From IMG/VR virus record IMGVR_UViG_3300033463_000008: a stretch of 64,000 nt of DNA; one strand, given 5' to 3'. The stretch is from a virus. Taxonomy: Duplodnaviria > Caudoviricetes. A program made the position numbers and the translations under genes. The notes under the pieces were generated by a model. That model was given only the letters and a program-made list of their open reading frames with translations, did no database searches and was not told the origin of the DNA. Positions within the stretch are counted from its first letter, which is position 1, and each line of letters begins with the position of its first letter. Below are positions 36,356 through 60,654 of the stretch, one piece after another.

Positions 36356-36673
36356 TTAGTCGTCTTTCTCTTCTTTCTTGTCCGACTTGCTGTTGTACTT
36401 TGCACCCTTTTCGGCAGCCATACGCTGTTTAAGCTTCTCGGTCGGGATGTCATGGAACATCTTGCGGTGGAGGTCCTTGTAGCTAGCCTTGACATTGTTC
36501 CTGTACTGCGGGTCAAGGTACTTCGAGTCCATCCAAGGAGCGTCTTCTTTGACGCCTTCGAAGCAAACTTTGGCTGCGGAACGGACTGCCTCACACAATC
36601 CGGTTGCACCGCTAGCCTTCTCGAAATTGGTGAGGAAGGTGTTAAATTTTTTAATACGTTCGTTGAGATCCAT
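36356..36673 (-). CDS. Small basic protein; candidate internal head protein
   Basis: Late box variant 36700-36707; N-terminal module ending VCFE|G. Confidence 0.75.
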   Translation of the reverse strand: MDLNERIKKFNTFLTNFEKASGATGLCEAVRSAAKVCFEGVKEDAPWMDSKYLDPQYRNNVKASYKDLHRKMFHDIPTEKLKQRMAAEKGAKYNSKSDKKEEKDD

Positions 36674-36702
36674 TGTTAAACTCCGGAATGTTTTACTACA
36701 GC

Positions 36703-37464
36703 TTATATACCGGACAAATCGGTCATCATGAATGCACCCGGCGATTCCTTGATAACCTTCTCTTCCAGCTTTTCAAGACGGGCAGCAGCCGTATCATAGA
36801 TTTCCTTGCCGTTGATGGTCAACCCGCCCGGCATCGTAAAGGTATGCTTCTTCAAGATGATGCCAAGCTGTTCCTGTGCCCGCCAGAAAGCCATGTCACG
36901 GAATAGGATGTTGTTGTAGAGCTCGGACTTCTTGGCCTTCAGGTACACTTCAGCAACCGCGTTCGTCCTGGACCTCGGGGTCGGGTATATCCTCAGGAGA
37001 TGGTCCGTCGGATGGAACTTGATATGATACTGCGTGCCGACAAGCTTCTTCACGTCCTCCAGGTAGCGCAACGCGCCTGAATAGGTAATGAGGTCAAACT
37101 GCCCAAGGCCACCAAGACCGGCACCACCGACACCCATCAGGGATTCACCCGGCCCAACGTCCCATGCCATCATCGGGCTGAACGTGTTGCCGTAACTCGG
37201 GTTCACTTCAATGACGTTGACGACATTAGGCGGAACACGATATTCCATGACCCCCGGAACAAGATGGAGGACCATGAGGTCAATGTACTGGGCTTCGTCC
37301 ACACAATAACGGTAGAAGAAGTCCTCGGTGTCCTCAATAGCCATGTGTACATGGCCGAGACCACGGTCTTCTTCCACGACCATTTCAATTTCCTGACACT
37401 GCCCGCCCATCCTGGAAATGATACGGCGCACCATGTCATCGCGTGTGATATACTTGGCATCCAT
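36703..37464 (-). CDS. Neck protein (T4 gp13-like head-tail adaptor)
   Basis: IISRMGG..IEM, LRIYPTP, QLGIILKKH..MPGGLTINGKEIYDTA. Confidence 0.9.
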   Translation of the reverse strand: MDAKYITRDDMVRRIISRMGGQCQEIEMVVEEDRGLGHVHMAIEDTEDFFYRYCVDEAQYIDLMVLHLVPGVMEYRVPPNVVNVIEVNPSYGNTFSPMMAWDVGPGESLMGVGGAGLGGLGQFDLITYSGALRYLEDVKKLVGTQYHIKFHPTDHLLRIYPTPRSRTNAVAEVYLKAKKSELYNNILFRDMAFWRAQEQLGIILKKHTFTMPGGLTINGKEIYDTAAARLEKLEEKVIKESPGAFMMTDLSGI

Positions 37465-37470
37465 GCCAGC

Positions 37471-37482
37471 AGTTTATAAGCT
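37471..37482. promoter_or_regulatory. Overlapping bidirectional late promoter AGTTTATAAGCT
   Basis: Reads TATAAACT on minus and TATAAGCT on plus; each is followed 6 nt later by an ATG (37464, 37489). Confidence 0.8.
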
Positions 37483-37488
37483 ATGGTC

Positions 37489-37962
37489 ATGGAACCAATC
37501 GAACTACTGCGAACCAGCGTCTTCAGGACTACGAACAATCCCGAACTGACCGATGCCATCATCAGGATATTCGAGACTGCCGGGGATGATACCAATGTCG
37601 CCATGGAAGCTCTTGGCAGGCTGGTAGGCTACGAGTTCGGCGAGTTCATCATGCAGCTCGCCGATATCGCATTTGACCGTGAACCGGCACTGTGTGTCGA
37701 TCCGTTATACCAAGATGCCTCGGTTGAAACCGAGGCCCGCCCGAAACACGCGACGGGATGCTTTGTCCAGCCAATAATCGCACAGGGAAACATGGCAAAG
37801 AACCTGCGGGATGACCAGCAGTGGAAGCACATCAGGAAATTCAATCCTATGCTGGAACAGGAAATCATCAAGTTTAACAACATGAATGAATTTGAAAAGT
37901 TGCGGTACTTGACCGCCAAGGAAATGGCGCAAAAATATCCGATTGGGCGGACCCGTACTTAG
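37489..37962 (+). CDS. Hypothetical protein; candidate internal head protein
   Basis: Start likely ATG 37489; N-terminal module ..LTDAIIRIFE|TA. Confidence 0.7.
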   Translation: MEPIELLRTSVFRTTNNPELTDAIIRIFETAGDDTNVAMEALGRLVGYEFGEFIMQLADIAFDREPALCVDPLYQDASVETEARPKHATGCFVQPIIAQGNMAKNLRDDQQWKHIRKFNPMLEQEIIKFNNMNEFEKLRYLTAKEMAQKYPIGRTRT

Positions 37963-38540
37963 CGGAACATTCGCGGGAAAGCATCTACCGTGCCAAACAG
38001 TTCAAATTTCGGGGAATAATCTTTCCAATCCTTAATCAGGGTTGAATTCTTCGAGTGTCCGCCTGGCGGAATGGCAACCGGAATATGCGAGTGTTCAGCA
38101 GTAGATTTAAAATCCCCCACGACCCCAACGGCAAACGCATCGCCCGTAATACCAATCGTATCAACCAGCAGTTTAACCTTCTTGCCCAAGTTGGCGGCAA
38201 TGTATTCCTTTACATCAGGATGGTCATCTGGAACCCCGAAAGACAATGTGCAGCGTTCACATTTCATTTCCCACCCATAAGGTGCCAACGGCTGCATTAC
38301 ATCAATTAGACGGCGTGTTGACGCCCCATCAAGAAAAATCCCGAAGAAAACGGCATGGTTTCCTTCGGGCAGTTCCATTAAATGTTCGAGGTTGAAATTA
38401 TAGCGCCAATCAGCACCATACTGTTTGGTCCACTGAATCATAACAGAATCACCCAGATCGTGTCCAGCTTTTTCCGACTCAATCCACTTGTGCCGGAGCA
38501 TTTCTTCTTTCTGGGCAGCCATGATATCAGCCATCTTCAT
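37959..38540 (-). CDS. DUF4032-like domain fused to a degenerate 2H phosphoesterase-like domain
   Basis: EMLRHKWIESEKAGHDLG..W..W is the DUF4032-type motif; the C-terminal part aligns with the 2H layout (RCTLSFG ... HIPVA..GGHSKNS..IKDW). Confidence 0.6.
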   Translation of the reverse strand: MKMADIMAAQKEEMLRHKWIESEKAGHDLGDSVMIQWTKQYGADWRYNFNLEHLMELPEGNHAVFFGIFLDGASTRRLIDVMQPLAPYGWEMKCERCTLSFGVPDDHPDVKEYIAANLGKKVKLLVDTIGITGDAFAVGVVGDFKSTAEHSHIPVAIPPGGHSKNSTLIKDWKDYSPKFELFGTVDAFPRMFR

Positions 38541-38591
38541 ATTAGATCCCCCTCAGGAAATATAGTACGAAAATGTTACGCCATCTACGGC

Positions 38592-39074
38592 TTAGCCATC
38601 AAACTGAGTGAACTTGTAGATGATGTCGGTCATCTTTTCGTCAAAATCGGCGTAAATATTTTTCACGCCTTCCGACATCTTAGGATTCTTTGCCGCCACG
38701 TCAGCCATGTGTGACTGAAGTTCTTTGAGCTTGGCAATGACGGTCTCGTCATCGACCTTCACATCAGCAGCCGGCTTCCCCGTGATGGCAACATAACTCT
38801 CGGCAAGACGGTCACCGACATCACGGCAAAGGTCATATGCATCCTGCAATAGAGTATGCTTCGACATCTTTTTGACCCCCCAGTGTATCTTATTCAAGTC
38901 ATTGGAGGAGTCAAGGAGCCAATTGGCAGTGTCCTTGACACTGTCGTAGTTTCCGCCCTTACCATCAGCAGCTTCTAATCTGGCAACCATGAGGGCGATA
39001 GACTTCGCAACCATCGGATCGCCGGTAATCTTTGTGGCTGCTTCAACAAGAATCTTGGTTTTGACGGAATTCAT
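38592..39074 (-). CDS. Ferritin/Dps-like four-helix protein (DUF5856-like)
   Basis: IHWGVKKMSKHTLLQDAYD..DRLAESY..NIYADF..IIYKF; late box 39098-39105. Confidence 0.7.
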   Translation of the reverse strand: MNSVKTKILVEAATKITGDPMVAKSIALMVARLEAADGKGGNYDSVKDTANWLLDSSNDLNKIHWGVKKMSKHTLLQDAYDLCRDVGDRLAESYVAITGKPAADVKVDDETVIAKLKELQSHMADVAAKNPKMSEGVKNIYADFDEKMTDIIYKFTQFDG

Positions 39075-39112
39075 AAGAACCTCTTTTTAACAACAGCAGT
39101 TTATAGTCATCA

Positions 39113-39196
39113 CTACAGGAGTCCGCTCCAATCATCATGATTGAAGAATATGACCCCGGCAGCAATGACTACCGCAACTATCACTAGCGACGACAT
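39113..39196 (-). CDS. 27-aa single-TM peptide MSSLVIVAVVIAAGVIFFNHDDWSGLL
   Basis: ATG 3 nt after the stop of 39200..39790; fills the intergenic gap; ends TAG TGA TGA. Confidence 0.55.
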   Translation of the reverse strand: MSSLVIVAVVIAAGVIFFNHDDWSGLL

Positions 39197-39199
39197 GGT

Positions 39200-39790
39200 T
39201 TATTCGCCATCGGCTGCTTTGACCTGTTCAGGTTCCTTGACAGCAGCCTTCGGCTTGCGCTGACGCTTCGGACGGGTGGACACAGTTACCTGTCCGCCCA
39301 TTTCGCTACCGACGGATATGCCATTGGCTACAGGATTCGCATCCACGACGACTTCCGCATTGGCAGGAACGTTCGGTGCAAAGATAGGTTCGGCAGGAGC
39401 CTGTTCAGCGGCGGGAGGAGCCATGAACAATTCCTGTCCAGACAATTCCTGGTCCAGCTTGGCGAGGAATGCATGATAGCGTTCCTTAATGGACTCGATG
39501 ATAGCCTTCTGTTCGCCGGAAAGCACCGGGCTGATTCCAGCAGTAGCGGCCTTCTGTGCTGCTGCGGTTGCACGCTGTCGTGCAATAATTTCCGCAACGG
39601 AATTGTTCTGTGCAGGCTTGGCACCCCGTACAGCAATAACTTTACGTGCAGCTTCGCTTGCCTTGCGTTGCGCGGCAAGAATATCGGCCACGGAGTTGCC
39701 AGCTGGCTTAACTGCCGGACGTGCCGGTACAGCCTTGCGCGTTGCATTAGATGCCCTCTGCTGGGCAGCAAGAATTTCTTGGATTGTCAT
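39200..39790 (-). CDS. Ala-rich protein with three N-terminal repeats
   Basis: TIQEILAAQQRAS / SVADILAAQRKAS / SVAEIIARQRAT; AGGA RBS. Confidence 0.8.
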   Translation of the reverse strand: MTIQEILAAQQRASNATRKAVPARPAVKPAGNSVADILAAQRKASEAARKVIAVRGAKPAQNNSVAEIIARQRATAAAQKAATAGISPVLSGEQKAIIESIKERYHAFLAKLDQELSGQELFMAPPAAEQAPAEPIFAPNVPANAEVVVDANPVANGISVGSEMGGQVTVSTRPKRQRKPKAAVKEPEQVKAADGE

Positions 39791-39824
39791 TGTGTTATCT
39801 TCCTTTCGTTATAAAATTATTTCC

Positions 39825-40502
39825 TTATGGACGCATGCTCCGCATGATATCCAAAGTGCCCTCGGTATCGACAACCGGGGAAGGTTCCGAGGCAGGAGAT
39901 GGCGGTGGAGGCGTCATGGCTTCCGGAGGTGGAGCCATCCATGTCTCCCACTGCTGCGGGGGAGCCGCCTGTGGAGCTGTCGGTTGCATCGGTGCCGGAG
40001 AAAGCCATTCATCCCAACCACCCTGCGCACCCTGTGACGCAGGAACCGTGCCCGCTGAAGCTCCGCTTGCCGACCACGGATCATATTCAGGGGACATGTC
40101 AAAACCAGCGGCAGAACCGACATAACCGGATGGACGGCCCCATGGATCCGTCAACCTCTTATTAGTTTCTTCCTCACTCGGCTTCCGGTACGGATTCCCA
40201 TTGCTGGGCAATTCCAAATCCTGCATCGACACATAGCGCCACGGGACAAATGTACGCGTTCCGTCACGGGCCACATATTCATCCGGACTTTCCCTCCGGA
40301 TAATCCTCGCCATATCACCTTCAGGAGCCTTCCCGTCATAAGTACGGTCTTCGATGAAGGCACGTTGCCTATCGGCTGGAGTCATCGGTTTCGGCTGAGG
40401 GGCAGGTGCACTAGGCTTCATATTGGGACGGCGTTGCTGTCTGGCAATACGGTCGGCTTCACATGCCCTTCGCTGCTGTTCGATTATTTCGGCGACTGTC
40501 AT
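39825..40502 (-). CDS. Pro-rich low-complexity protein
   Basis: ATGA-coupled to gp15; N-terminus MTVAEIIEQQRRA. Confidence 0.75.
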   Translation of the reverse strand: MTVAEIIEQQRRACEADRIARQQRRPNMKPSAPAPQPKPMTPADRQRAFIEDRTYDGKAPEGDMARIIRRESPDEYVARDGTRTFVPWRYVSMQDLELPSNGNPYRKPSEEETNKRLTDPWGRPSGYVGSAAGFDMSPEYDPWSASGASAGTVPASQGAQGGWDEWLSPAPMQPTAPQAAPPQQWETWMAPPPEAMTPPPPSPASEPSPVVDTEGTLDIMRSMRP

Positions 40503-42127: not shown

Positions 42128-42193
42128 TTCAGCGATAGATTTATAAGTTCATGGTTGTTGAAACCTTATAAGTCTATGGGTGAGGTATCCCCG

Positions 42194-42553
42194 ATGAACG
42201 AAGAATTGGAAAGATATTTTAAGGAAGCACGAGCAGTTATCAAAGATAATGCCGTCCTGGAAAGTGTGGTCACCGGAATGAAAACGGTGATTATCGAAGC
42301 AACCGGCGATTGCCCTTGCGGCGATCCTGATTGCAACGGCCACTGCAAGTACGGCCTCGAAGAAAACAAGAAGCCAGAAGAACCAAAGCAAGAAGCGGTT
42401 GAACAGACTCCATTGCAAATCCTCGAAGCAGCACGAGGGGATACCCCCAAGAAGGACTTTGTTCAGGCTCTCCGTGAGGCGATCGAACAAGTCAACAAGG
42501 CGCCATTGAAAGCTCGACTGAAGCAAAAGCTAGATAAATACGCAAGCATGTAG
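42194..42553 (+). CDS. Hypothetical protein with Cys cluster; candidate internal head protein (start corrected)
   Basis: GAGGT RBS before ATG 42194; box TATAAGTC 42167-42174; module ending VIIE|A; CPCGDPDCNGHC. Confidence 0.75.
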   Translation: MNEELERYFKEARAVIKDNAVLESVVTGMKTVIIEATGDCPCGDPDCNGHCKYGLEENKKPEEPKQEAVEQTPLQILEAARGDTPKKDFVQALREAIEQVNKAPLKARLKQKLDKYASM

Positions 42554-42554
42554 C

Positions 42555-42584
42555 AAAAAGGCCACCCAACGGGTGGCCAATTTT
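42555..42584. terminator. Bidirectional terminator
   Basis: aaaaa-ggccaccc-aac-gggtggcc-aatttt between convergent genes. Confidence 0.8.
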
Positions 42585-42599
42585 AATTCAGGGATAACC

Positions 42600-42986: not shown

Positions 42987-43018
42987 TTTATACTCCTTTT
43001 TGTTTTCACTACACAATA

Positions 43019-43035
43019 TGCAAAATGCGTGCCAA
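43019..43035 (-). promoter_or_regulatory. Sigma54 (-24/-12) promoter TTGGCACGCATTTTGCA
   Basis: Exact match to TGGCACG-N4-TTGC(A/T), correctly oriented 32 nt upstream of the hsp20 ATG. Confidence 0.8.
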
Positions 43036-43614: not shown

Positions 43615-44334
43615 TTATAATTGTTCCATATCTTCCGGAAGGACATTGTCGTCATTAACGGCCTCAGCCGTCTTTTCAACCTTCTGGATAGCCTCATCAA
43701 TCGATTCACCGGTAAGACCGGCATTAGCGGATGCGTTCCAGTGCCTGCGCTGTTTCTCACGCTTCACCATGCCGGCATACTGGTCAAACGCGATGCACGA
43801 ATGAAGAATGCCTTCATCAAGAGGGACAAACTGGACCAGTTCGCTGCGCTTGTTCAATGTTTCCCATTTCTGGAAGAAAGCGCACTTTACGCAACGGCGG
43901 ACATAGTTGTACGGGTCGTTGCTCTTGGCGGTCTTCGTCTTGGCCGGGTCATAGTTGTGGAGATAGTTCAATGCGAGAATCAGGGCATGACCCCTAAATT
44001 CTTCCTTCCATTCCGGCGTATATCCGGAGAAACGGGCAGAACCGAGAGTCTTCTCAATGACAATCTGGACAATCCTGGCAAGGCGCGGATCCATTTCCGG
44101 ACGCGGAATTTCCTTTGCCTTTTCCTTGCCGACTTCCTTACAAAGAGCTTTGTACGGCAGCATCTTTTCCCTGTGCTCTATCAAGAGCTTCATCAGATAC
44201 CCTTTGTCGATGGTACCATACAGCATGGAAAGTTCGGTCTGGTTTCCATTTTCATCAAATTCCGGCTTCATCTTTGTCGGCATGCTAGCCTTCATTTTCG
44301 ATGAATAATGAGTAACCTTGTTATCCTGGCTCAT
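43615..44334 (-). CDS. Late-transcription sigma factor (T4 gp55-like)
   Basis: RFSGYTPEWKEEF..ALNYLHNYDP..SNDPYNYVRRCVKCAFFQ matches the gp55 pattern (NFxxY..EM..NFDP..NPFAYFTQ..AF). Confidence 0.8.
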   Translation of the reverse strand: MSQDNKVTHYSSKMKASMPTKMKPEFDENGNQTELSMLYGTIDKGYLMKLLIEHREKMLPYKALCKEVGKEKAKEIPRPEMDPRLARIVQIVIEKTLGSARFSGYTPEWKEEFRGHALILALNYLHNYDPAKTKTAKSNDPYNYVRRCVKCAFFQKWETLNKRSELVQFVPLDEGILHSCIAFDQYAGMVKREKQRRHWNASANAGLTGESIDEAIQKVEKTAEAVNDDNVLPEDMEQL

Positions 44335-47468: not shown

Positions 47469-48356
47469 TTAGCCGAATCGGCCACCGATTCCGAGTTCAT
47501 CGTATGCCGCAATCTGCTTCATTGCTATGCCAACGTCATCGGTCGGTTCGGCATTTTCCCCACGGATAGCCTCCAAGGTAACGGTTGTTCCCTGGAGCCC
47601 GACCCTTTGTGGCTTCAAGCCACGACCGACAGCCTCAACGAAGTTGCGCTGGGCAGGAGTCTGCTTAGGCTGGGCAGGTTCCTCGTTGCCATTGAAGTCC
47701 AGCTGGAAATCATCGGCATCCTTGATGGCATTGCGAATCTTGTCCATGTTGATGTCGCTCGGATCAGGATCGACATCAAGGACAAAGCCGTTTTGGTCAT
47801 CGATAAGATGCGCATTGATGAATGCCGTAACGCTTTCCTTCGTGATTTCGCGTTCATCATGGCCACGGAAATGGTCGAGGACATTGCTGACCGTATTGGG
47901 GTCGAGACCCTGGCAAAGCCTGAGAACTTTCGTTTCAGCATTAGCCTTGTTAAGCCTGTCAGTAATCTCTTCGTGCTTGATGTAGTTCTCTTTTAGTTCA
48001 AGGTTAACCTTGGCCAATTCCCTCTTTAGTTCCTTCACGGTCTGGGTATCACCAAAACCATCGACACCAAGGGAATTTTCAAGGATAGCGGCTACGCCTT
48101 TCAACGCGGCATACATCTTTGTGTTGATTGCGTCAGTCTGCATGTTGTTCATACATGACTCGACAGCCGCATTGATTTTATCTTCAACCTTAGCATTAAC
48201 TGATTCAAGAAGCTTGGAGAACTTCTCGGCAGTTTTCTTTGATTCCGCCTTTACACCGGCCTCCAACCTCGACTGGTAGTCCGACTCGATTTTGGCGGCA
48301 ACGCCTTCAGGCAATGAACCAATTTCGGCTTCTGTCAATATCTTTTCCAGCACCAT
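47469..48356 (-). CDS. Prohead core scaffold protein (T4 gp22-like)
   Basis: Directly downstream of the protease; coiled-coil; many (I/L/V)xE sites. Confidence 0.7.
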   Translation of the reverse strand: MVLEKILTEAEIGSLPEGVAAKIESDYQSRLEAGVKAESKKTAEKFSKLLESVNAKVEDKINAAVESCMNNMQTDAINTKMYAALKGVAAILENSLGVDGFGDTQTVKELKRELAKVNLELKENYIKHEEITDRLNKANAETKVLRLCQGLDPNTVSNVLDHFRGHDEREITKESVTAFINAHLIDDQNGFVLDVDPDPSDINMDKIRNAIKDADDFQLDFNGNEEPAQPKQTPAQRNFVEAVGRGLKPQRVGLQGTTVTLEAIRGENAEPTDDVGIAMKQIAAYDELGIGGRFG

Positions 48357-48363
48357 ATTATCC

Positions 48364-49104
48364 CTATCTCATCTGGCTCAGGTACCCAATGAGCGATTCA
48401 CGGTTAAAGCTGCGATACCCGGTGGATATCAGGGCCCTATTGTATGCCACTTCACGGCGCAGCGAATTGATTGATTCGGTGAGGACCTTTGCAGGTTTTT
48501 CAATGGATTCACGACGGGAATTAAAGATTGCGCTCTGACCGAAACTCGGGTTGCCGACCACATCAACGGTAATCATTGTGTAGTTGTCGGCAATCTGCTC
48601 GTATTCTTCACGAGTAAGCGCATTTATCTTCTTGACCGTATCACCGGCACCACGAAGCGAATATCCAGGATGATACCCAATCTTGATTAGACCGGCCAAA
48701 TCATGCCCAGCATCCGTATCCTCAGCAACGACCATGCGGCATTTAAGCTTGTCCCCTTCCATATGGAGGTCTTCAATGACAGCGCATGTCTTCTTCAAGT
48801 TCATTTCAAAAATCGGATAATCGCGGGGCTTGCCTTCTTCATCAAGTCTTGGATGATTAAGTTCGGCAGCCAGACGGCCATAAGCCACATAATCACGATT
48901 CAACCGATCAACTTCCCTGGCAATAATTTCCCGAGGATAGTCACGACCATTGATACCGACAACACCGCAAACAATGGCGGTGCCTTCAATAATCAGTCGT
49001 TTGACCGGTTTGCCATCAAGGCCGATACGCTCACCGATATGCGAAGTGGAACCTTCGAACACCGGTGTCTCGAAAATGCCCATACTGTCTGTTATTGCAC
49101 CCAT
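48364..49104 (-). CDS. Prohead core protease (T4 gp21-like)
   Basis: LIIEG..NGRDYP, AELNHP, GYSLRGAG, TVDVVGNPS. Confidence 0.93.
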   Translation of the reverse strand: MGAITDSMGIFETPVFEGSTSHIGERIGLDGKPVKRLIIEGTAIVCGVVGINGRDYPREIIAREVDRLNRDYVAYGRLAAELNHPRLDEEGKPRDYPIFEMNLKKTCAVIEDLHMEGDKLKCRMVVAEDTDAGHDLAGLIKIGYHPGYSLRGAGDTVKKINALTREEYEQIADNYTMITVDVVGNPSFGQSAIFNSRRESIEKPAKVLTESINSLRREVAYNRALISTGYRSFNRESLIGYLSQMR

Positions 49105-49122: not shown

Positions 49123-49296
49123 TTAACCAAACTGAGGTTCCTGGTCAGAAAGCATACTTTCAAAAACAGCCTTGCTGGTTTCTTCGACACGGCGTTTGAA
49201 TTGGCTTTCAAGCCGGGCACTGACAATCCGATTGATTTCTGCGTCATCATTATTGAAAAGTGCCGTTACCAGTCTCTGTGTTTCTGCTTTCTGCAT
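49123..49296 (-). CDS. Small prohead core protein (gp67/gp68-like position; start corrected)
   Basis: 57-aa helical ORF upstream of the protease; late box 49320-49327 lies inside the longer track ORF. Confidence 0.55.
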   Translation of the reverse strand: MQKAETQRLVTALFNNDDAEINRIVSARLESQFKRRVEETSKAVFESMLSDQEPQFG

Positions 49297-49393
49297 TACA
49301 ATACCACGATTTTCCAGTAAGTTTATAAGGGAAGCGCAGTTTTTACTGCACAACTCGGTGCTTTACGCTAAGAAACTACATTAGATGGCAAAT

Positions 49394-49931: not shown

Positions 49932-51869
49932 CTAGGCATTCACCGGCTTACGGGCAATTTTCCCGGTAAGTTTACGAGCTGCTGGATTAGCAGGGGACGT
50001 AGTTCCGCCTTTAAACATCATCACGCTTCCGAGGTTATTGATAAGCCTATCAATTGCCTTCCAGGAATAGCCAGCAAGCGGACATCCCTTTCCAAGCATG
50101 ATGGAACGAATCATGTTCACAAAATTCGGCGGCACCTCGGCAAGACTTACCGTCTCATCATTCACTTGTGCATATCCAGCCGGAAGTCCCCGAATGATAT
50201 TATCCATATAAATACCGAAACTGTCCTGGATCAATCTAATTGCATTGGCACCCACCGCATTCTTAGTTGCTTTATTCAATGCATCGCATTGTGCTGCAGT
50301 CAAGGCAGGATTTTCTAAAAGTGGCTCACCCTGTTCAAGTTTTTGCATAATCTCCGGGTTACCGGACAAAATATCTTGAACAACCCCAGTGGTCTTGTCA
50401 GGAATCCCAAACAGCGTCTTAATTAATACAAATGTCGGTGTGCCCTTCCCAAGTACACGAAGAAGATCAAGTATTGTAGCACCCGGGTTTAACGGGTCGC
50501 TGCTATAGATTGCGTAGCCGTCATTAAGCGACGCCTTGAGTTCATTGGCACCATCTTCAATCGTTTCAATATACGCATCCGGAATTTCATCCTCAGATAC
50601 ATCACTTAATTCAGAACCGCCAAGCGAACTTACATCACCCACCCACACGGTCGGCATGATTTCTTCCACAATCGATTCAGTGGAAGGTACTTCGCCCTTC
50701 TTATATCCCAACTTTCTAAGCAACCCGGCTAGGTCAGTTTGGTTACATTCTTCGGCATTGAACTTACCGGAATTTACAAGCTTACTTACGGCAAAATAGC
50801 ACTGCTCCAGTTGCGACCAGTCCATGTTTTGCAATTCAGGATTGGTGTAGCCCAAATCATTAATCATCTTTATCAGCCGAGAACCAATCGCTGCATTATT
50901 CTGGTTAGGTTCTTCTTCAGGTGCCTCTTCAATTCCAACACCAAGTTGTTCAGACGCATCCTTAGCCGATGAGAAATGCTGGTCCTCTTCATTATCGGAA
51001 TGGCGGACTTCCTGTGCGCTTACGTCTTCATCCAAGTTGTTGTTTTCTTCAATTTCAAACGTGCCTTCATTAGACATCACATCAGCGGCAGTATCATCAG
51101 ATTTCTTTTTGGACCCACCCTTTTTACCGCTGCCTTTTTCAGTAGTATCATACTTGCTATATACCGCCCCGCTATATTGCTCGTCATCACCGGCAATATG
51201 CTGCTTTTCCACACCGCCCATATGGCTTTTTGCAAATTCAACTAATTGTTCATTGGTCGGCTCTGACAAACCTATGGATGCAAGGGCATCATTAGTTGTC
51301 ACTTGTCCAGGCCATGGTATATTACGCGATTTATACTGGTCAATTGCCCACTGGCGCTTAATGAAATTCTTATTTTCCTTTCGGCTGACAAGATTCTCTA
51401 TATTAGTGCCATACAATTCCTTTCCACAAATATATGCGGAAACCCCATTGCTTTCCAGAAGAACGCCAGCAACATCCATGATAGCCTCTACCTGAATAGT
51501 GTCAAGACCCATATCGAACAGGGTGTTACGCATCTTGTCTTCACGGCTTTCACCAAGGGCATGACGAAACTCCGGAGTAGGGGCAGCATCATCCTTATAC
51601 TGTTCATACGGGACATAGTCAATCCATGAATCCATCGACTCCACGACACGTGCCTTGAATTCTTCCGGCGTACCGCTACCGGCTTCACTCGACCCGTCAC
51701 CGAGATAAATGGTGTAGGACAATGTTCCATCGCCATTGTCGGTGCATTCGGCGAGCGTTCCCTCGCTATTCGGGAGAGACACTACAATAGTGCCATCCGC
51801 TTTCTTAGAAACGGCTGCCCCACTCTTGGAAAGCAGGTCCGAAATTGTGTCAAAGATTTCTTCGTTCAT
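49932..51869 (-). CDS. Large acidic multi-segment protein; candidate internal head protein (start likely ATG 51869)
   Basis: ATGA overlap with the upstream ORF; late box 51900-51907; internal module ending VLLE|S. Confidence 0.75.
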   Translation of the reverse strand: MNEEIFDTISDLLSKSGAAVSKKADGTIVVSLPNSEGTLAECTDNGDGTLSYTIYLGDGSSEAGSGTPEEFKARVVESMDSWIDYVPYEQYKDDAAPTPEFRHALGESREDKMRNTLFDMGLDTIQVEAIMDVAGVLLESNGVSAYICGKELYGTNIENLVSRKENKNFIKRQWAIDQYKSRNIPWPGQVTTNDALASIGLSEPTNEQLVEFAKSHMGGVEKQHIAGDDEQYSGAVYSKYDTTEKGSGKKGGSKKKSDDTAADVMSNEGTFEIEENNNLDEDVSAQEVRHSDNEEDQHFSSAKDASEQLGVGIEEAPEEEPNQNNAAIGSRLIKMINDLGYTNPELQNMDWSQLEQCYFAVSKLVNSGKFNAEECNQTDLAGLLRKLGYKKGEVPSTESIVEEIMPTVWVGDVSSLGGSELSDVSEDEIPDAYIETIEDGANELKASLNDGYAIYSSDPLNPGATILDLLRVLGKGTPTFVLIKTLFGIPDKTTGVVQDILSGNPEIMQKLEQGEPLLENPALTAAQCDALNKATKNAVGANAIRLIQDSFGIYMDNIIRGLPAGYAQVNDETVSLAEVPPNFVNMIRSIMLGKGCPLAGYSWKAIDRLINNLGSVMMFKGGTTSPANPAARKLTGKIARKPVNA

Positions 51870-52057
51870 GGTATAGTCCAAAAATGTTTCTTTTCAGGGA
51901 GTTTATAAGGTTTATCAATGTCTACCCAAGTGCCATCGCGAACAACCTGGTGTATTATTTGAAAATCTTCCTGTGCAGGGACATTACTGATTTCAAACGT
52001 GAAAATGCCCAGAAGCACCAAAAGAGCCATAATCAGAAGCAATATAGGATGCTTCAT
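51866..52057 (-). CDS. 63-aa membrane-anchored/secreted peptide
   Basis: Starts 2 nt after the 52060 stop; ends in an ATGA overlap; hydrophobic N-terminus. Confidence 0.6.
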   Translation of the reverse strand: MKHPILLLIMALLVLLGIFTFEISNVPAQEDFQIIHQVVRDGTWVDIDKPYKLPEKKHFWTIP

Positions 52058-52059: not shown

Positions 52060-52632
52060 TCAGCTTGCCGCACCAGCGCCGGCACCGCCGCCACCACCGC
52101 CACCGGCGCCATCACCGGCATATACGCCATTCTGGTTGTTCGGGCATGTGACCGAATATCCGCACTGCATTGGCATGCGGGTCAAGTTGAGATTCCACTG
52201 CATCGGGTTGGGCAGATGTTCCTTGGCCCGCTTAATCATCTGATCAATGGGCACGGACTGCAGTGCATCTGACTTGTATTTGTTAAGTCCGGTAATCTGT
52301 CCCCCGGAAATCAAGTCGGGAACATTCCATTTCGCATCGCGGGTTTCCTCGCCTATGTCACGAGTGCAATGCCCACTTACGCTAACTCCGCCATCAGGAA
52401 GGACATCAGGAGCCGACGTTCCGGATGTATTGGCGGCATTCGGGACTACGTGGGTAAAGCCCTTCCAGTCGATTACGGCATTCTGTCGTACCGAATCAGG
52501 CACCATAAGCGGGCGGAAAAAGTTCCCCTCGCAGAGTGCACGAAATGTTTCCGCAGCTTCTACCACACCACGGTCACCAGTCGCCTCGAAGAGGCCCTTC
52601 ATAAATTCCAGGTACTTGATTGCCGGAACCAT
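52060..52632 (-). CDS. Hypothetical protein with poly-Gly tail; candidate internal head protein
   Basis: N-terminal module ending ALCE|G. Confidence 0.75.
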   Translation of the reverse strand: MVPAIKYLEFMKGLFEATGDRGVVEAAETFRALCEGNFFRPLMVPDSVRQNAVIDWKGFTHVVPNAANTSGTSAPDVLPDGGVSVSGHCTRDIGEETRDAKWNVPDLISGGQITGLNKYKSDALQSVPIDQMIKRAKEHLPNPMQWNLNLTRMPMQCGYSVTCPNNQNGVYAGDGAGGGGGGGAGAGAAS

Positions 52633-52636: not shown

Positions 52637-53002
52637 TTACCCCTGCGCATTGGCAACTTGTTTCTGGTTCTGTTCATTCAGTGTATTCTTGGCATTCAGT
52701 TCCTGCTGCAATTCACCAAGGGTTTGCCCTGCTGCAGCGGTAGTCTGGTCAAGCTGGGCCTGGGCATTGTCAACCTGCTGTTTTTCCTGAGCGGCCTTGT
52801 TGGCAATGTTGGCAAGCACCTTGGCGCCTTCCGGATTTTCCGTAAGGGCAGCCGGGTCAACCGGGATACTGTTTTCAGTAGTGCCACCATTCTGAACCTG
52901 GGTAGAATCGGCCTCGAAAAGGCATTCCCACGCAGCCACAGCTGCATTACCCATTGCAGGAACACCCGCACATGATTCCAAAATTGTCTGCTTAAAATTC
53001 AT
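52637..53002 (-). CDS. Gln/Ala-rich coiled-coil protein; candidate internal head protein
   Basis: GAGG RBS; late box 53020-53027; module ending CLFE|A. Confidence 0.8.
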   Translation of the reverse strand: MNFKQTILESCAGVPAMGNAAVAAWECLFEADSTQVQNGGTTENSIPVDPAALTENPEGAKVLANIANKAAQEKQQVDNAQAQLDQTTAAAGQTLGELQQELNAKNTLNEQNQKQVANAQG

Positions 53003-53027
53003 ATTAAACCTCGGCTTGCAGTTTATA

Positions 53028-53049
53028 AAAAATGCCTCCCGTAGGAGGC
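53028..53049 (-). terminator. Intrinsic terminator abutting a late box
   Basis: gcctcc-cgta-ggaggc; the T-tract runs into TATAAACT. Confidence 0.7.
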
Positions 53050-54833: not shown

Positions 54834-54848
54834 ACTTCTAGCTTATAA

Positions 54849-56237
54849 CTACTTCTGATATGCCTCGATAACCTGTCCGATGGTGTCAAATTCTTCATTT
54901 TTGCCATCTTCCGGTTCGACAACCCACTTTTTGCTGTCATAATCGTAGCGGAACGGTATCTTCTTGATGACATCCTTGTCACGGAAGATGAGTTCATCGT
55001 CCTGTTCACCAACATGCTTGGCAATGACGCCATCGGCCTTGATGAGGAACGCGCAGTCACCATATCCAAGGTCATAGTGCTTCAAATACGAACAACCGAC
55101 CGGGAGGGCGAACAGCCACCCCTGCTTGCCCCGTCCTCCGTCATACATCGTAGTGTAGGCAAGGTGGTCAAGTACCGTAGTACCGTTGGCAAAGCCACCC
55201 TTCTTGATTTTCGGGTAAGCCTTATCGTTTGTAAAGTGAACCGCCCAGGCGCCTTCCTTGATATGGGCGTCCTTGAAGTAATTGAAGGCTTTCTTGGTTG
55301 TATCGACATACCCCTTGGAGTCCTTGATGTCTTCCGTCGGTTTCTTGCCGAGATACCTGTTCAATTTCTTCATATTCCCATCTACGGATTCCATTGCACC
55401 TGCGTAGCCGGACCGGTACGCGTTACGCACAGTATCAACAAGTTTCTGATCTACCTGCTTATTCGGCGCAATCTCGGGATTTTTCGATGCAGAGTTCACA
55501 TATGCATCACGGAATTCTCCCGACTTAAGAAACTTTTCCCACGGATAAACGCCATGCCTGGTAATAAACACCTCGATCATGGCCATGTCGTTTTTCAGCT
55601 GCGCAACTGCATAGTCACGATTGCTCGATTCACATAAAGGAACTACATGCGTTCTGGAAACGCCTTCAGTGATGTCATACAGTGACAGGATTGATTCTAT
55701 GAGAGCTCGGTGCCCGGGTGTCACCTTGCACACCGAATCCATGATGTTACGGTACGCGGCGCGGTGTTCATCACGGATTTTCTGTGGATTCACCCTAATG
55801 TAGTCATCCATCAGGTTGCCACGCTTTTCGGCTTTCTTGAAGTCGGGCGTTTGCCTCATCTGGTTAAACTCACGGTTGCCGTAGGTTTTCAGAAAATATG
55901 TGATGTCGTCACATGCCTGGAGGAAACGGTTATAATCATTTTCCCAAGTCTTGCGGTCATTGTCAATCAGGAACTGCTTTGCCTTTTGTTGCTGAGGCGT
56001 GAAGTCACGATGTTTCAAGCCAAGAGTATTTTCGGGTGGCGGGGTCCGCTTGGCCGCATTGGCTCCGCCAACGATCTTGTTTTTCAGTCTTCCCACCAGG
56101 CTCCGGGCACGGTTAAAGAAATTATCCATGCCTTCCAATACCACATACTCCTTCAAGGCGCATTCAAGCAATGGCCGATTCTCGTCGGTAGCCAAAGCAA
56201 CAACTGAATTTATGAACTCTCGGTGTCTCTGTTCCAT
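54849..56237 (-). CDS. Multi-module protein with C-terminal ADP-ribosyltransferase-like domain (start 56237 or 56255)
   Basis: VHFT..IKKGGF..GWLFA..YG..DELIF layout; late box 56261-56268; repeated modules ending VLE|G, ITE|G, AME|S. Confidence 0.55.
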   Translation of the reverse strand: MEQRHREFINSVVALATDENRPLLECALKEYVVLEGMDNFFNRARSLVGRLKNKIVGGANAAKRTPPPENTLGLKHRDFTPQQQKAKQFLIDNDRKTWENDYNRFLQACDDITYFLKTYGNREFNQMRQTPDFKKAEKRGNLMDDYIRVNPQKIRDEHRAAYRNIMDSVCKVTPGHRALIESILSLYDITEGVSRTHVVPLCESSNRDYAVAQLKNDMAMIEVFITRHGVYPWEKFLKSGEFRDAYVNSASKNPEIAPNKQVDQKLVDTVRNAYRSGYAGAMESVDGNMKKLNRYLGKKPTEDIKDSKGYVDTTKKAFNYFKDAHIKEGAWAVHFTNDKAYPKIKKGGFANGTTVLDHLAYTTMYDGGRGKQGWLFALPVGCSYLKHYDLGYGDCAFLIKADGVIAKHVGEQDDELIFRDKDVIKKIPFRYDYDSKKWVVEPEDGKNEEFDTIGQVIEAYQK

Positions 56238-56271
56238 ATTGCAATTCCTCTGCATGGAGCAGTTTATACAG

Positions 56272-56294
56272 AAAGGGTGCCTAACGGCACCCTT
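56272..56294 (-). terminator. Intrinsic terminator
   Basis: aagggtgcc-taac-ggcaccctt. Confidence 0.75.
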
Positions 56295-56326
56295 GTTGAT
56301 TTAAGGAGGTCAGTTACGAAAATAAA

Positions 56327-56959: not shown

Positions 56960-57033
56960 GATAACTCCTGGTGTTATGGGTTTCAGGTTTCTAAAGGAAA
57001 ACTACATCACTCGGATGATATAAACTGATTTTT

Positions 57034-57291
57034 ATGGCACGTAAGAACAAAAATAATATTGAAAACGAAACAATCGACATCATCCAGGATGCCGAAGTGC
57101 CGGCATTGGCCGAAATGCCGCCTACACCCATTGAACCGGAACCCCAGAAACCGGTAGCCACCAAGTACCCATCAAGTACCCATCAAGCACCCGTGCCGCC
57201 AAAGAAACGGATACGCATCAGGCCCAGCCAGAAAAAGAAGCTGTCGGTCGCTGTCCTGTGCACAAATCCATTAACACGACGTTTTATTTAA
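57034..57291 (+). CDS. Small Pro-rich basic protein
   Basis: Late box 57019-57026, 7 nt before the ATG; terminator follows. Confidence 0.7.
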   Translation: MARKNKNNIENETIDIIQDAEVPALAEMPPTPIEPEPQKPVATKYPSSTHQAPVPPKKRIRIRPSQKKKLSVAVLCTNPLTRRFI

Positions 57292-57292
57292 G

Positions 57293-57320
57293 AAAAAAGG
57301 TGGCCAATCGGCCACCTTTT
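57293..57320. terminator. Bidirectional terminator
   Basis: aaaaggtggcc-aatc-ggccacctttt. Confidence 0.85.
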
Positions 57321-57336
57321 CCTTTATGAAGCTGTA

Positions 57337-57500
57337 CGGAATGCACGGATTGTAAATGAACTACCCACACGCTAAAGACGTGTGGGTTTCCACAGCATCT
57401 GCGAGTGATGTTTCCAAGGCTGCTCCCCTAACGGGGTTCATAGAATCCTCGGCGTAAATTCCGGCTGTCCGAGCCGTATTGTTTAACCTGAACGCGAACT
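57337..57500 (-). ncRNA. Putative omegaRNA (reRNA) of TnpB; boundaries approximate
   Basis: Known TnpB architecture: scaffold overlaps the tnpB 3' end and right end, guide is the flank (TTTACAATCCGTGCATTCCG). Confidence 0.55.
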
Positions 57501-58705
57501 TCTTGATGTTCTGTGCAGCGAGAAGGTCACGTTGATTTACGGAACTGCAAGCAGGACAAGTCCACACCCTATCGGATAATTTTAATCCCCTATAGACATA
57601 ACCACAGGAACACATCTTGGAAGATGGCTCAAATCGTCCAATCCTTATGATGTTCTTTCCATACCATTCAGCCTTGTAGTCCATATAGGTATTGAATGTT
57701 CCAATGCTTATATCGGACAATGCCTGGGCAAGTTTGTGATTCTTAACCATATTGCTTGCAGACAAGGTTTCAAGGCATATTGTATCGTAGTGGTCTATCA
57801 AATACTTGGCGGTCTTATGTAAGAAATCCTTGCGTTTGTTCGTAACCTTCTCGTACTGACGGGCAAGCAACTTGACGGCTTTCTTCCGCTTGTTGCTTCC
57901 CTTGACTTTACGAGAAACGGAGCGTTGCAGACGCTTGAGTTTCTTCAAGACTTTCTTTAAGTATTTGGGGTTCTGTATTTCAGTCCCATCGCTTAATGTG
58001 GCGAACGTCTTGATACCCAAGTCCACGCCGACCGCTTTGTTCTCGTCTATCGGTGCTTTAGTTGGTAGGGTATCTTCGGTTTCTACAAGAATGGATATGA
58101 AATACTTACCCGTTGGTGTCCTGCTTACTGTACTTGTCTTTATCTTTCCGTTTAATTGTCGATCGAACTTGCATTTGATTCCTTCCTTGAACTTCGGCAA
58201 GAACACCCGCTTGGCATCATAGTCCACCGTAGTATTCTGCGGAACTTGGAAGGATTGTCGGTTGTCGTGCTTGGACTTGAACTTCGGGAAGCCCTTCTTC
58301 TCCTTGAAGAAGTGGGTGAACGCCATATCCAGGTTAAGCAGGGCTGCTTGGAGCGAGAGTGAATTGACTTCGGAGAGCCATTTTGTCGCATCGGCTTTCT
58401 TCATCTTCGGCAAGTCTGCCTGTATGGTGAAGCGGGACACGCTTTTCTTGGTTTCGGAGTAGGACTTTATTTTTCGTTCAAGCCCATAGTTGTAGATGTA
58501 TCTGGCACACCCGAAATGCTTGGATAGAAGCACCTCTTGTGTTTTTGTTGGACAGAGCCGATATTTGTATGCCTTCAACATCATACCTTAAATATACACT
58601 ATCCTTTAATGAGAAGCAAGTATTTTCTCTAAAAATTATAAGTTTCTGCTTACGGGCAATTCAACTCGCCCCACTGAAGATGGGTGGGATTTCTTGCCTA
58701 TTCCG
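57357..58705 (-). mobile_element. IS200/IS605-family (tnpB-only, IS1341-like) element; ends approximate
   Basis: Right-end hairpin ACCCACACG-TCTTTAG-CGTGTGGGT then AGTTCA; left-end hairpin with a TCTTCAG loop at 58667-58688; no tnpA. Confidence 0.8.
57361..58584 (-). CDS. tnpB: RNA-guided endonuclease TnpB
   Basis: KAYKYRLCP HTH, RuvC GVDLG / ICLETL / RDLLAAQNI, zinc finger CSCG..CPAC; promoter TTGCTT-17-TATATT 6 nt upstream. Confidence 0.95.
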   Translation of the reverse strand: MMLKAYKYRLCPTKTQEVLLSKHFGCARYIYNYGLERKIKSYSETKKSVSRFTIQADLPKMKKADATKWLSEVNSLSLQAALLNLDMAFTHFFKEKKGFPKFKSKHDNRQSFQVPQNTTVDYDAKRVFLPKFKEGIKCKFDRQLNGKIKTSTVSRTPTGKYFISILVETEDTLPTKAPIDENKAVGVDLGIKTFATLSDGTEIQNPKYLKKVLKKLKRLQRSVSRKVKGSNKRKKAVKLLARQYEKVTNKRKDFLHKTAKYLIDHYDTICLETLSASNMVKNHKLAQALSDISIGTFNTYMDYKAEWYGKNIIRIGRFEPSSKMCSCGYVYRGLKLSDRVWTCPACSSVNQRDLLAAQNIKKFAFRLNNTARTAGIYAEDSMNPVRGAALETSLADAVETHTSLACG

Positions 58706-59245
58706 TTAAAATTCTTCTTCGCTTTCATCCGTTTCAGCAATCGGAGTAAACACGACCGGATTTTCATCCAGCGAATGAATTTCCAACTTAATCGGAATGA
58801 GAATCTTTTTGCCGGTCTGCGGATTGGTTTCCTTGCGCTTGATCCATTCTTCCAGAACATCGTTCGCTTCGTCACGGTTCTTGATGCCGTCGATGGTGCA
58901 TGTCATGTTCTCTTCAACGCCATCACCGGCGTTCTTGCGGGTATGGGTGAAGGTTGCCGTATTAGCAATGCCGGAGAACGTGACCAGATGTTCCAGTTCG
59001 GTCCCAAAATCGACCTTGATGAACACGCCGTAATCGCGGAGGTCGGCCTTGACACTGCCCAGCGGGAAATTGATGTTGATGTCCTCGACACCGAAAGTAT
59101 TTTCGAGGACTTCAGCCATTTCCTTGGAATCGGAAGTACCTGTAATCTTCAACTTGAACTTGGTGACGGTAGTGTCCTTGACGACGGTCGGGGCCATGGA
59201 CATGAGGGTACCAATGGCAGTAATTTCGAGCTTATTTTTTGACAT
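58706..59245 (-). CDS. Hypothetical beta-rich protein with acidic tail
   Basis: AGGA RBS; extended -10 TGcTATATT at 59277-59285. Confidence 0.75.
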   Translation of the reverse strand: MSKNKLEITAIGTLMSMAPTVVKDTTVTKFKLKITGTSDSKEMAEVLENTFGVEDININFPLGSVKADLRDYGVFIKVDFGTELEHLVTFSGIANTATFTHTRKNAGDGVEENMTCTIDGIKNRDEANDVLEEWIKRKETNPQTGKKILIPIKLEIHSLDENPVVFTPIAETDESEEEF

Positions 59246-59334
59246 TGTTCTAGTTCCTAATTGCTTGTTTAATTGAAATATAGCAAAAATGTTTCATGTT
59301 TGATATAAGACTGTAGAAAAATTGCGAGAATCAC

Positions 59335-59913
59335 ATGCCAGCTGACATCAAACATGTACCACAGATGGAATCGATGATGGCTTTCTACACAAAATTTGCC
59401 AATTCATTCGATTGCCCGACTATCTTGGCCGAGGCTGCTACCGAGATGTTCAAAGAAGTCCTTCTGGAAGCTTCTCAGTCAAGCGACGTTGCTGACCAGC
59501 TCCGTCAAAAAGTGGGTGTAAATCCAAACGAGACCCAGGGTATTGATGTGTTCGGACTTAGCGGCGATGACAACCTTCCGCGGCAAACTACCATCGACAA
59601 CGAGATTTCGGATGCGATGATAAGCGGTTCGTTTGATTCTCTGGGCGATGACATTTCCACCACAGATCCAAATAGTTTCGATGAAACTGCAATGGGTCTC
59701 GGAAGTTCAGAATTTGACACTTCCGATAACGAACTAAACCCGGACGACTGGACAGCAGAAGAGCAAACCTCGGATACTGATATACCGGAAACTGCTGAAG
59801 ATGCAAACAGCACCGGTGGTGATGAACTTGAACCAGCTGCCGATGAAGGTGGCATGGAAGATGATTTAAACTCGACCGGCGATGATGCCGAAATGAGTAC
59901 AGGGGAATTATAA
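59335..59913 (+). CDS. Very acidic protein; candidate internal head protein
   Basis: Box variant TATAAGAC 59304-59311; module ending VLLE|A; D/E-rich remainder. Confidence 0.8.
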   Translation: MPADIKHVPQMESMMAFYTKFANSFDCPTILAEAATEMFKEVLLEASQSSDVADQLRQKVGVNPNETQGIDVFGLSGDDNLPRQTTIDNEISDAMISGSFDSLGDDISTTDPNSFDETAMGLGSSEFDTSDNELNPDDWTAEEQTSDTDIPETAEDANSTGGDELEPAADEGGMEDDLNSTGDDAEMSTGEL

Positions 59914-59928
59914 TAAGGAGACTCCAAA

Positions 59929-60654
59929 ATGAATAAAATCCAACAAAAGTACAATGCTTTCATGGAAAGCGTATGCACTCAGTTCAACTGCAAGCAGGCA
60001 CTTCCGGCCCTCAGACAGGGTTTCAAGGCTTTCTGCGAAGCCGTTGATGTCGATTACGACCCGTTCGACATTGACAATATGGTCGCCAACGCGTCCGATG
60101 CCGAATTCGGTGCCGAAAACAATGACAGCCGGTATAATATCGACCGTGTCACCGGTCAAGGAAGCGTTGACTTTGACGAAGGTGACGCCGATGATACTAA
60201 CGTCGCCCTCGTGACTCAGAGGCTTGCCAAGAGACTGCAGGTTCTATTTGATCGCGAATCTTACCGAGCTCTCAGTGCAAGACTGGATGACAGACATGAC
60301 AACTGGATTGTTATTAATGTCGATGGCATTTATATGGGTACGGTAGTAGTTACTGGCAACACCGTGTCAGCAGAATATCCAGAATTCTCTGATGGGAATG
60401 GCCGCGCACTTCCTTTCAGCAATGTTAAGTGTTCTGTAAGTAAGTTCGATTTAGATGATCCTCAACTAGCAGACAATGTGGCCGCAGTATATTTGGATAG
60501 GGCCATGTCTGTCAGTTCCAAAGTGAATGCATTGAACAGAGAACCTTATGAAGTCACACGCGAACGCCAGCAAAAAATACTTAATGCCGGCGCTGATATG
60601 AATGATGATGAATTTGCGAATGCATTGCGCAATCACGAGTTCGACAATTTGTAA
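59929..60654 (+). CDS. Hypothetical protein; candidate internal head protein
   Basis: AAGGAG RBS; module ending AFCE|A. Confidence 0.8.
   Translation: MNKIQQKYNAFMESVCTQFNCKQALPALRQGFKAFCEAVDVDYDPFDIDNMVANASDAEFGAENNDSRYNIDRVTGQGSVDFDEGDADDTNVALVTQRLAKRLQVLFDRESYRALSARLDDRHDNWIVINVDGIYMGTVVVTGNTVSAEYPEFSDGNGRALPFSNVKCSVSKFDLDDPQLADNVAAVYLDRAMSVSSKVNALNREPYEVTRERQQKILNAGADMNDDEFANALRNHEFDNL

Follow-up and report, generated by a model that had tools for sequence, protein, structure and literature searches.

Leaders ending at a conserved glutamate on diverse proteins of an uncultured giant T4-like phage are probable capsid-targeting propeptides

Why do ten otherwise unrelated proteins encoded in one region of a phage genome carry segments of similar shape that end in a hydrophobic residue, any residue and glutamate? 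A first-pass annotation had explained these segments as copies of one propeptide, a portable address label that would load diverse cargo into the prohead and be removed there by the prohead protease. The DNA in question is a 64,000-nucleotide stretch (the window), which corresponds to the minus strand of bases 105545-169544 of the 198,445-bp IMG/VR phage record IMGVR_UViG_3300033463_000008, with a completeness of about 53% according to CheckV. All coordinates are in the frame of the window; those above 64,000 lie on the same contig outside it, and genes are named by their first coordinate. The phage is a distant, uncultured and giant relative of T4. We demonstrate that the ten leaders belong to several sequence families whose mutual similarity is weak and above that of controls, that the proposed cut site is conserved in position, and that one leader type occurs on many unrelated bodies. 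The leaders are, in our judgement, probably a longer form of the T4 capsid-targeting propeptide.

The ten segments quoted in the first-pass annotation were all found at the stated places and comprise 29-41 residues each. Eight of them are N-terminal; the internal ones are the module of gene 49932 and a second copy in gene 54849. On alignment they share a common plan, in which helix 1 is followed by a turn rich in Gly, Asp, Asn or Pro and by a helix 2 that ends hydrophobic-x-Glu ahead of Ala, Gly, Ser or Thr. This end fits nine of the ten window segments, the exception being 38592 with Arg at -2. Helix 1 carries [YFH]-x-x-F-[ILMA] in six leader families. The label helix-turn-helix-like holds for the 36356 family, for which AlphaFold2 with a 16-sequence alignment predicted a hairpin with helices at residues 3-21 and 24-38 and a turn at 22-23. 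In this model Glu39/Gly40 (a slash marks the proposed cut throughout) lies at the end of helix 2 with coil beyond, and confidence is highest in the leader (predicted local distance difference test, pLDDT, 79-88).

The individual leaders are as follows. Gene 59929-60654 begins with a leader of 37 residues (59929-60039, plus strand) that ends F-C-E/A, and on the minus strand the leaders of genes 52060-52632 (52528-52632, residues 1-35) and 36356-36673 (36557-36673, residues 1-39) end L-C-E/G and C-F-E/G, respectively. Gene 54849-56237 on the same strand has two modules. Translation of this gene probably begins with the ATG at 56237, which follows an AGAGGA ribosome site, and the first leader (56133-56237, residues 1-35, ending V-L-E/G) is kept in the homologs P0088, P0096 and P0099; the internal copy (55665-55772, residues 156-191) ends I-T-E/G and has a helix 1 (YRNIMDSVCK) similar to that of the 59929-type leader. 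The leader of gene 52637-53002 (52913-53002, minus strand, residues 1-30) ends L-F-E/A. In gene 49932-51869 the module (51453-51575, minus strand, residues 99-139, ending L-L-E/S) follows a conserved N-terminal domain of about 100 residues. The module of gene 59335-59913 (59365-59469, plus strand, residues 11-45) ends L-L-E/A. Its orthologs L013:11152-11955, L015:11932-12735 and L014:9578-10618, all on the minus strand, have an extra N-terminal domain of 85-165 residues ahead of the module (L003, L013, L014 and L015 are contigs of relatives used for ortholog comparison). Since the protein of the window starts 10 residues before the module, the module is internal in the relatives and N-terminal here. 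Two members are weaker: the leader of gene 42194-42553 (42194-42298, plus strand, residues 1-35), which ends I-I-E/A and is followed by a Cys-rich motif, and that of gene 38592-39074 (38973-39074, minus strand, residues 1-34) with the atypical site A-R-L-E/A. Gene 42194 is real, as its orthologs are 60-81% identical. The leader-like N-terminus of gene 37489-37962 (37489-37575, plus strand, residues 1-29, ending I-F-E/T) is a doubtful member. Most leader families have a Cys 1-3 residues ahead of the cut-site Glu (F-C-E, L-C-E, C-F-E, C-L-F-E, A-C-M-E, A-C-F-E), unlike the T4 tags, which have no Cys.

Apart from one ortholog of 37489, all orthologs have the cut site at a fixed position. Of the distinct leader sequences in three families with deep alignments, 29 of 30, 35 of 35 and 9 of 9 retain the Glu. 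The site of 52060 is kept in all relatives and that of the 49932 module in four of four, the 49932 body beyond it being only 33-40% identical. Orthologs often show insertions or deletions directly after the site, as in 36356 and 52637. In the 36356 family 16 of the 17 invariant columns fall in the leader, and the mean fraction of the majority residue is 0.80 in the leader and 0.62 in the body.

The strongest indication of a portable element comes from the 59929 type. BLAST of this protein against more distant relatives matched only residues 1-37/41 (46-49% identity, E about 1e-8), with different bodies behind them, and in a close relative the same locus keeps the leader type and has a different body. 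A profile of the leader only (alignment A2, 44 columns), searched against 5.8 billion proteins, retrieved 30 proteins of 130-436 residues with E-values down to 5e-26. In 29 of the 30 the leader has exactly 37 residues and ends Cys-Glu, and the bodies fall into at least 12 clusters without mutual BLAST similarity. In two chimeric proteins from public metagenomes, P0001 and P0015, a leader precedes a Lys-rich spacer body, which is joined through a partial second leader (or a junction) to the body of another member; this suggests recombination within or next to the leader. The converse exchange is seen for the C-terminal domain of 54849 (residues 285-462), which, in an exhaustive search with the gene, was also found by itself in proteins of about 200 residues. 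One of these homologs, P0090, has a full two-helix leader ending L-C-E/A, and P0093-P0101 have short leaders of 12-25 residues that end hydrophobic-x-Glu before Ser, Thr or Ala. One leader with many bodies within a lineage and one body with different leaders across lineages are what one would predict for a leader that is adapted to the assembly machinery of its own phage. The comparative evidence thus bears out the portable label of the first-pass annotation for the 59929 type, on at least 12 bodies; the 36356-type and 52060-type leaders were found almost only with their own bodies.

Are the leader types related to each other? For 37 gene families of this region, we compared ortholog profiles of the N-terminal 42 residues with hhalign. 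E-values below 0.05 were obtained for 29% of leader-leader pairs and for 5-6% of the pairs with one or two control profiles (Mann-Whitney p=2e-10); the 42194 leader, for example, matches that of 52060 with E=1.6e-3. Deep leader profiles built from database matches align over their whole length, with Met and cut site in register, at P-values of 1.2e-4 (59929 vs 52060), 7.6e-3 and 6.8e-3 compared with 0.09-0.32 for reversed controls. A composite pattern modelled on T4 joins aromatic-x-x-F-hydrophobic to hydrophobic-x-E-small across 10-32 residues and has to begin no later than residue 25. It occurs in 8 proteins compared with 0.67 expected from 200 residue shuffles, none of which gave more than 3, an approximately 12-fold excess. 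These statistics are inflated twice, by a composite pattern written after the data had been seen and by a ten-segment set picked by eye. Leader carriers make up six of these eight proteins, and internally the same pattern shows no excess (9 vs 8.9 expected).

Sequence models covering all leaders performed less well. A single profile hidden Markov model (HMM) of the ten leaders gave mostly non-significant results when members were left out one at a time and did not grow on iteration over local open reading frames, and a core HMM from six families did no better. Because leave-one-out, iteration and core HMM were all weak, we rejected a single-family model for all leaders. When leave-one-out HMMs were built at the family level with orthologs from four related contigs, 52060 ranked first (E=0.011) and 36356 ranked 1-3 (E about 0.06-0.1), and 42194 and 38592 were not found. 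These HMMs also recovered two families that had not been listed, 89858-90193 (E=1e-5) and a 316-residue protein of relatives (E=0.003). Overall, the profile comparison upholds a relationship above background and does not sustain the original statement that all ten proteins bear the same module; common ancestry of all leaders is plausible.

Further probable carriers lie at 89858-90193 (plus), 102642-104360 (plus), 107660-108370 (minus) and 123739-126396 (plus), of which 102642, 107660 and 123739 were detected by eye or as weak HMM matches. Relatives L015 (9041-9988, plus) and L013 (9050-9988, plus) encode a protein of 313-316 residues with an internal leader-like module ending C-M-E/G, upstream of a 368-residue gene; at that place (61843-62703) the window has a different gene, 61855-62682 (plus). 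About 79.5 kb beyond the end of the window, 143545-144669 (plus) encodes a late protein of 374 residues with 12 hydrophobic-x-E-small sites, the highest density of the genome. It contains an internal leader-like module and then two near-identical copies of about 85 residues, each preceded by SAAMME/S, and from this arrangement looks like a polyprotein that would be cut into repeated small proteins.

Which enzyme could cleave the leaders? Gene 48364-49104 (minus strand) encodes a prohead protease of the T4 gp21 family (peptidase S77), as had been proposed, with matches to PF03420 (E=5e-14, above the cut-off) and phrog_207 (E=1e-31) and 31-33% identity to gp21 of cultured T4-like phages. The N-terminus of the capsid protein reads KWKAVLE/S, which we take to resemble that of T4 gp23; given this presumed resemblance, the specificity of the protease is probably of the T4 type. 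Directly beside the protease, in the position of gp22, gene 47469-48356 (minus strand) is a candidate scaffold protein by position and composition, being helical and charged with several hydrophobic-x-E sites; it has no family match in Pfam or PHROGs. Its first 25 or so residues (consensus M-x-L-S-K-I-L-T-E-x-E ... K-I-E-S) are best conserved across the clade and resemble the 38592 leader (hhalign E=5e-4), and the remainder is only 23-37% identical (alignment A1). A complex prediction of the scaffold (A1) with residues 1-40 of the 59929-type leader scored 0.00, a result that weighs neither for nor against binding. A small core-like protein is encoded at 49123-49353.

The head genes are arranged differently from those of T4. 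In T4 genes 20-67-68-21-22-23 are adjacent, whereas here the portal and major capsid genes (158948-162351), homologs of gp20 and gp23, lie about 100 kb away from the protease-scaffold pair. The pair is flanked by large proteins of 649 and 796 residues without an assigned function. The 796-residue neighbour was considered as a capsid protein and rejected, as the real gp23 and gp20 homologs are those about 100 kb away; DNA and protein searches of the INPHARED phage set gave no match for it. A gp55-like late sigma factor (43615-44334, minus strand; phrog_234 E=3e-13) and, according to Pfam, PhoH and a gp15-like protein are also encoded. We found no close relative among deposited phage genomes. 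Relatives in IMG/VR have proteases that are 53-96% identical, on contigs of up to 422 kb.

Late expression of the carriers can be judged from a late-promoter-like box, TATAAACT, of which the genome has 35 copies compared with about 6 expected, nearly all of them 5-45 nt ahead of gene starts. The statement that every carrier lies behind such a box was too strong. Exact copies, all on the minus strand, precede four of the ten, namely 54849 (56261-56268), 52637 (53020-53027, 17 nt upstream), 49932 (51900-51907) and 38592 (39098-39105). Boxes with one mismatch precede 36356, 37489 and 59929, and two or more mismatches are found before 52060, 42194 and 59335; 52060 is probably cotranscribed with 52637. 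Across the genome, the exact box is present at 7 of 15 leader genes and 24 of 143 other genes (Fisher p=0.012), and many genes with a late box, e.g. tail genes, have no leader. The association of the carriers with late promoters is therefore partial, and their late expression would follow from it only in part. The five genes that had been assigned sigma70-type promoters (35608, 37959, 49427, tnpB and 58706) lack the leader, as had been said, and also lack the box; our own sigma-70 promoter scan found one consensus-like site, before tnpB, and was otherwise uninformative. Of the four additional carriers outside the window, three have an exact or nearly exact TATAAACT box ahead of them. Immediately before the boxes of the minus-strand genes 52637 and 54849 there is a GC-rich hairpin with a T-run, at 53034-53049 and 56273-56294, respectively. 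These units are, by their sequence, putative terminator-plus-late-promoter cassettes. They recall the promoter-stem-loop cassettes that have been proposed to drive modular shuffling in T4-type phages (PMC2839356, PMC4122927).

The bodies behind the leaders broadly agree with their first description. The body of 38592 matches phrog_858 (Dps-like; E=1.9e-9, residues 42-157) and, below the cut-off, Pfam DUF5856 (24.7 bits vs 34.6), and the designation as Dps-like is broadly right as judged from these matches. The mature part of 59335 would be extremely acidic (net charge -37), that of 59929 has 204 residues and a net charge of -20, and that of 36356 has 66 residues and is highly charged. Gene 54849 is modular, with its leader, a middle part that contains the second module copy and further hydrophobic-x-E sites, and the C-terminal domain (54852-55385, minus strand), which was modelled by AlphaFold2 with a pLDDT of 94.8. 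This domain has no Pfam match, and Foldseek against the PDB found nothing at E<=0.001. With VIA-align the top 50 structures were mostly ADP-ribosyltransferase folds, the best with a low Z of 5.3 (root mean square deviation 3.3, 104 residues aligned). The family has an invariant His and near-invariant Tyr and Asp. From the model, the domain is probably ADP-ribosyltransferase-like, which would parallel T4 Alt. Most of the other carrier bodies have no family in Pfam or PHROGs.

How could such leaders work? In the reading that we favour, the carrier protein would be made late in infection and its two-helix leader would dock it onto the scaffolding core while the prohead assembles, with the aromatic-x-x-Phe face of helix 1 as the likely contact (cf. 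Tyr4 and Phe7 of T4 IPIII). The gp21-family protease would then cleave after the Glu that ends helix 2, the leader would exit the head, and the mature body would remain inside and travel with the DNA. We infer core binding, cleavage at the Glu, packaging and ejection from the sequence comparisons and from the T4 precedent. A bolder version, which we regard as tentative, holds that the two-helix leader represents a new class of structured capsid-loading domain in huge uncultured T4-like phages, with contigs of up to about 470 kb. It would dock as a folded hairpin on the scaffold or core at a conserved site, the different families might address different sites or set different copy numbers, recombination within the leader would drive the exchange of injected anti-defence effectors, and the leader could serve as a high-affinity, self-removing packaging tag.

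Several observations weigh against capsid-targeting propeptides as the explanation. With the Glu placed at residues 20-50, the bare motif [LIVMFC]-x-E-[AGST] is found in 29 of 156 called genes vs 22 expected and is thus not enriched, and the composite pattern owes part of its excess to hindsight, as described above. The similarity between families is weak, since most leave-one-out HMM tests gave E>0.01 and the hhalign probability between leader profiles never exceeds 55%. The L003 ortholog of 37489, which is the most distant one, carries Asn instead of the Glu, and the segments of 38592, 42194 and 37489 may be N-terminal helices unrelated to the others whose final Glu is a coincidence. The element [YFH]-x-x-F-[ILMA] is missing or displaced in 52637, 38592, 37489, 42194 and 49932, so that the resemblance to T4 amounts to a short motif. 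Portability is seen for the 59929 type alone and not for the 36356 or 52060 types. Internal modules, as in 49932, in the second copy of 54849 and in 59335 of the relatives, are not explained by a simple N-terminal tag. Finally, the phage is uncultured and known only from metagenomes, and cleavage, packaging and ejection are steps that we infer.

Alternatively, the carriers could be parts of the assembly core or of an inner body, comparable to gp67, gp68 and gp22 of T4 or to the processed inner-body proteins of phiKZ-type phages. Their propeptides would then have a role in building the head, and the products would either be broken down or remain structural rather than act as delivered effectors. 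We consider this unlikely, though it is the best of the alternatives. Genes 49932, 52060 and 52637 adjoin the protease and scaffold genes, the leaders of 36356 and 52060 stay with the same body as those of conserved structural parts would, the N-terminus of the scaffold itself resembles a leader, and some carriers hold many internal hydrophobic-x-E sites, as does T4 gp22. Long propeptides of inner-head proteins have also been reported in giant phages (PMC5694885). However, at least 12 bodies behind one leader are the signature of a fast-changing accessory locus, and the Dps-like and probably ADP-ribosyltransferase-like bodies are closer to the T4 cargo protein Alt than to a scaffold. Core parts and capsid-targeted cargo are not mutually exclusive explanations, as targeting and cleavage are needed by both.

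It is very unlikely that the module is a functional domain retained in the mature protein, e.g. a dimerisation or nucleic-acid-binding hairpin, with a Glu that is not a cleavage site. Such a domain would agree with the predicted fold, which is structured rather than a short linear tag, with the internal position in some proteins, and with the conserved Cys near the module end (FCE, LCE, CFE), which could have a role of its own. However, it fails to explain the near-invariant Glu followed by Gly, Ala, Ser or Thr at the domain end, the indels and breakdown of sequence beyond it, the same body domain behind unrelated short leaders ending hydrophobic-x-Glu in other lineages, and the match to the specificity implied by the propeptide site of the capsid protein.

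We give the least credence to the idea that there is no common module and that ordinary amphipathic N-terminal helices were picked by eye, the motif being expected by chance in about 14% of N-termini: the count of the bare motif, the mostly failing leave-one-out HMMs and a best pairwise Smith-Waterman score of 39, which is inside the tail of all N-terminus pairs, would fit it, yet the composite pattern is enriched at N-termini only, leader profiles are closer to each other than to controls, the 59929-type leader alone matches proteins with unrelated bodies at E=1e-8 to 5e-26, member 89858 was recovered without having been chosen by a reader, and the site keeps its position across orthologs in leaders better conserved than their bodies, which largely refutes chance for 59929, 52060, 36356, 54849, 59335 and 89858 and leaves it possible for 38592, 42194 and 37489.

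If the leaders are indeed capsid-targeting propeptides, this clade would load about 15 or more proteins into the head per 198 kb, far above the four known carriers of T4, and the loaded set would include a probably ADP-ribosyltransferase-like enzyme and very acidic proteins. The leader would also be a sequence handle for listing candidate injected proteins from metagenomes, many of which may be anti-defence factors; a single 44-residue profile already pulled out a dozen unrelated bodies. As a longer and foldable element kept across a wide clade, it may ease the structural study of how the T4 tag is recognised by the core. Its use as a packaging tag would first require a cultured relative.

How do these leaders compare with known systems? 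The T4 capsid-targeting sequence (CTS) is carried by IPI, IPII, IPIII and Alt and is removed by gp21 (Mullaney and Black 1996, reviewed in PMC9026906, PMC3012670, PMC5694885). Residues 4 and 7 are the main requirement for targeting and residues 8 and 10 are needed for processing (PMC9026906), and the internal proteins of T-even phages are diverse with only the tag conserved (PMC3012670). In the T4 record ipII and ipIII start MKTYQEFIAE/A, and in ipI, which starts MKTFKEF, the cut follows ITE at residue 19, ahead of A. The leaders described here would likewise be N-terminal propeptides on otherwise unrelated late proteins, which are head-internal in T4, while late expression and a location in the head would apply to the present carriers by analogy. 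Both end hydrophobic-x-Glu before a small residue in a phage that encodes a gp21-family protease, the aromatic-x-x-Phe spacing of six leader families is that of Tyr4 and Phe7 in T4, and conserved tags precede diverse and fast-changing bodies, with a probably ADP-ribosyltransferase-like cargo as the counterpart of Alt. With its one leader and many exchangeable bodies, the 59929-type locus resembles the polymorphic internal-protein loci of T4. The differences are considerable: the leaders have 29-41 residues and are predicted to form a helical hairpin, whereas the T4 tags have 10-19 residues; several leader families occur in one genome, compared with one in T4; about 15 carriers are found in 198 kb, compared with four; and some modules are internal or duplicated, with a conserved Cys beside the cut site. 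T4 gene 61.1 (NC_000866, start 19130, minus strand) encodes a hypothetical protein of 54 residues that begins MKTFKEFIKE/D, nearly the tag of the internal proteins, yet it belongs to the early region.

Functional analogs are also known. The coat-binding helix-turn-helix of the P22 scaffolding protein and the cargo-loading peptides of encapsulins are a small helical element and peptides, respectively, that dock a protein inside an HK97-fold shell. Both are C-terminal and are not known to be removed by a protease or to be related in sequence to the leaders; the likeness is one of function only. Further parallels are provided by phiKZ, 201phi2-1 and SPN3US, huge phages with many head-internal proteins and a gp21-like protease that cuts after Glu (PMC5694885, PMC7411985). 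Their propeptides are much longer than the T4 CTS and are presumed to have a similar function in targeting to the prohead (PMC5694885). However, these propeptides mostly have 80-160 residues or more with an A/S/G-x-E site and are not described as one portable module on unrelated bodies, and the present phage is T4-like with its gp23, gp20 and gp55. The novelty is thus less than the first-pass annotation implied, since T4 already provides the concept and giant phages provide examples of long propeptides. What is new is the form and the scale: a predicted hairpin of 30-40 residues in several families per genome, on about 15 carriers in 198 kb, present across a clade of huge phages and with one type on a dozen unrelated bodies.

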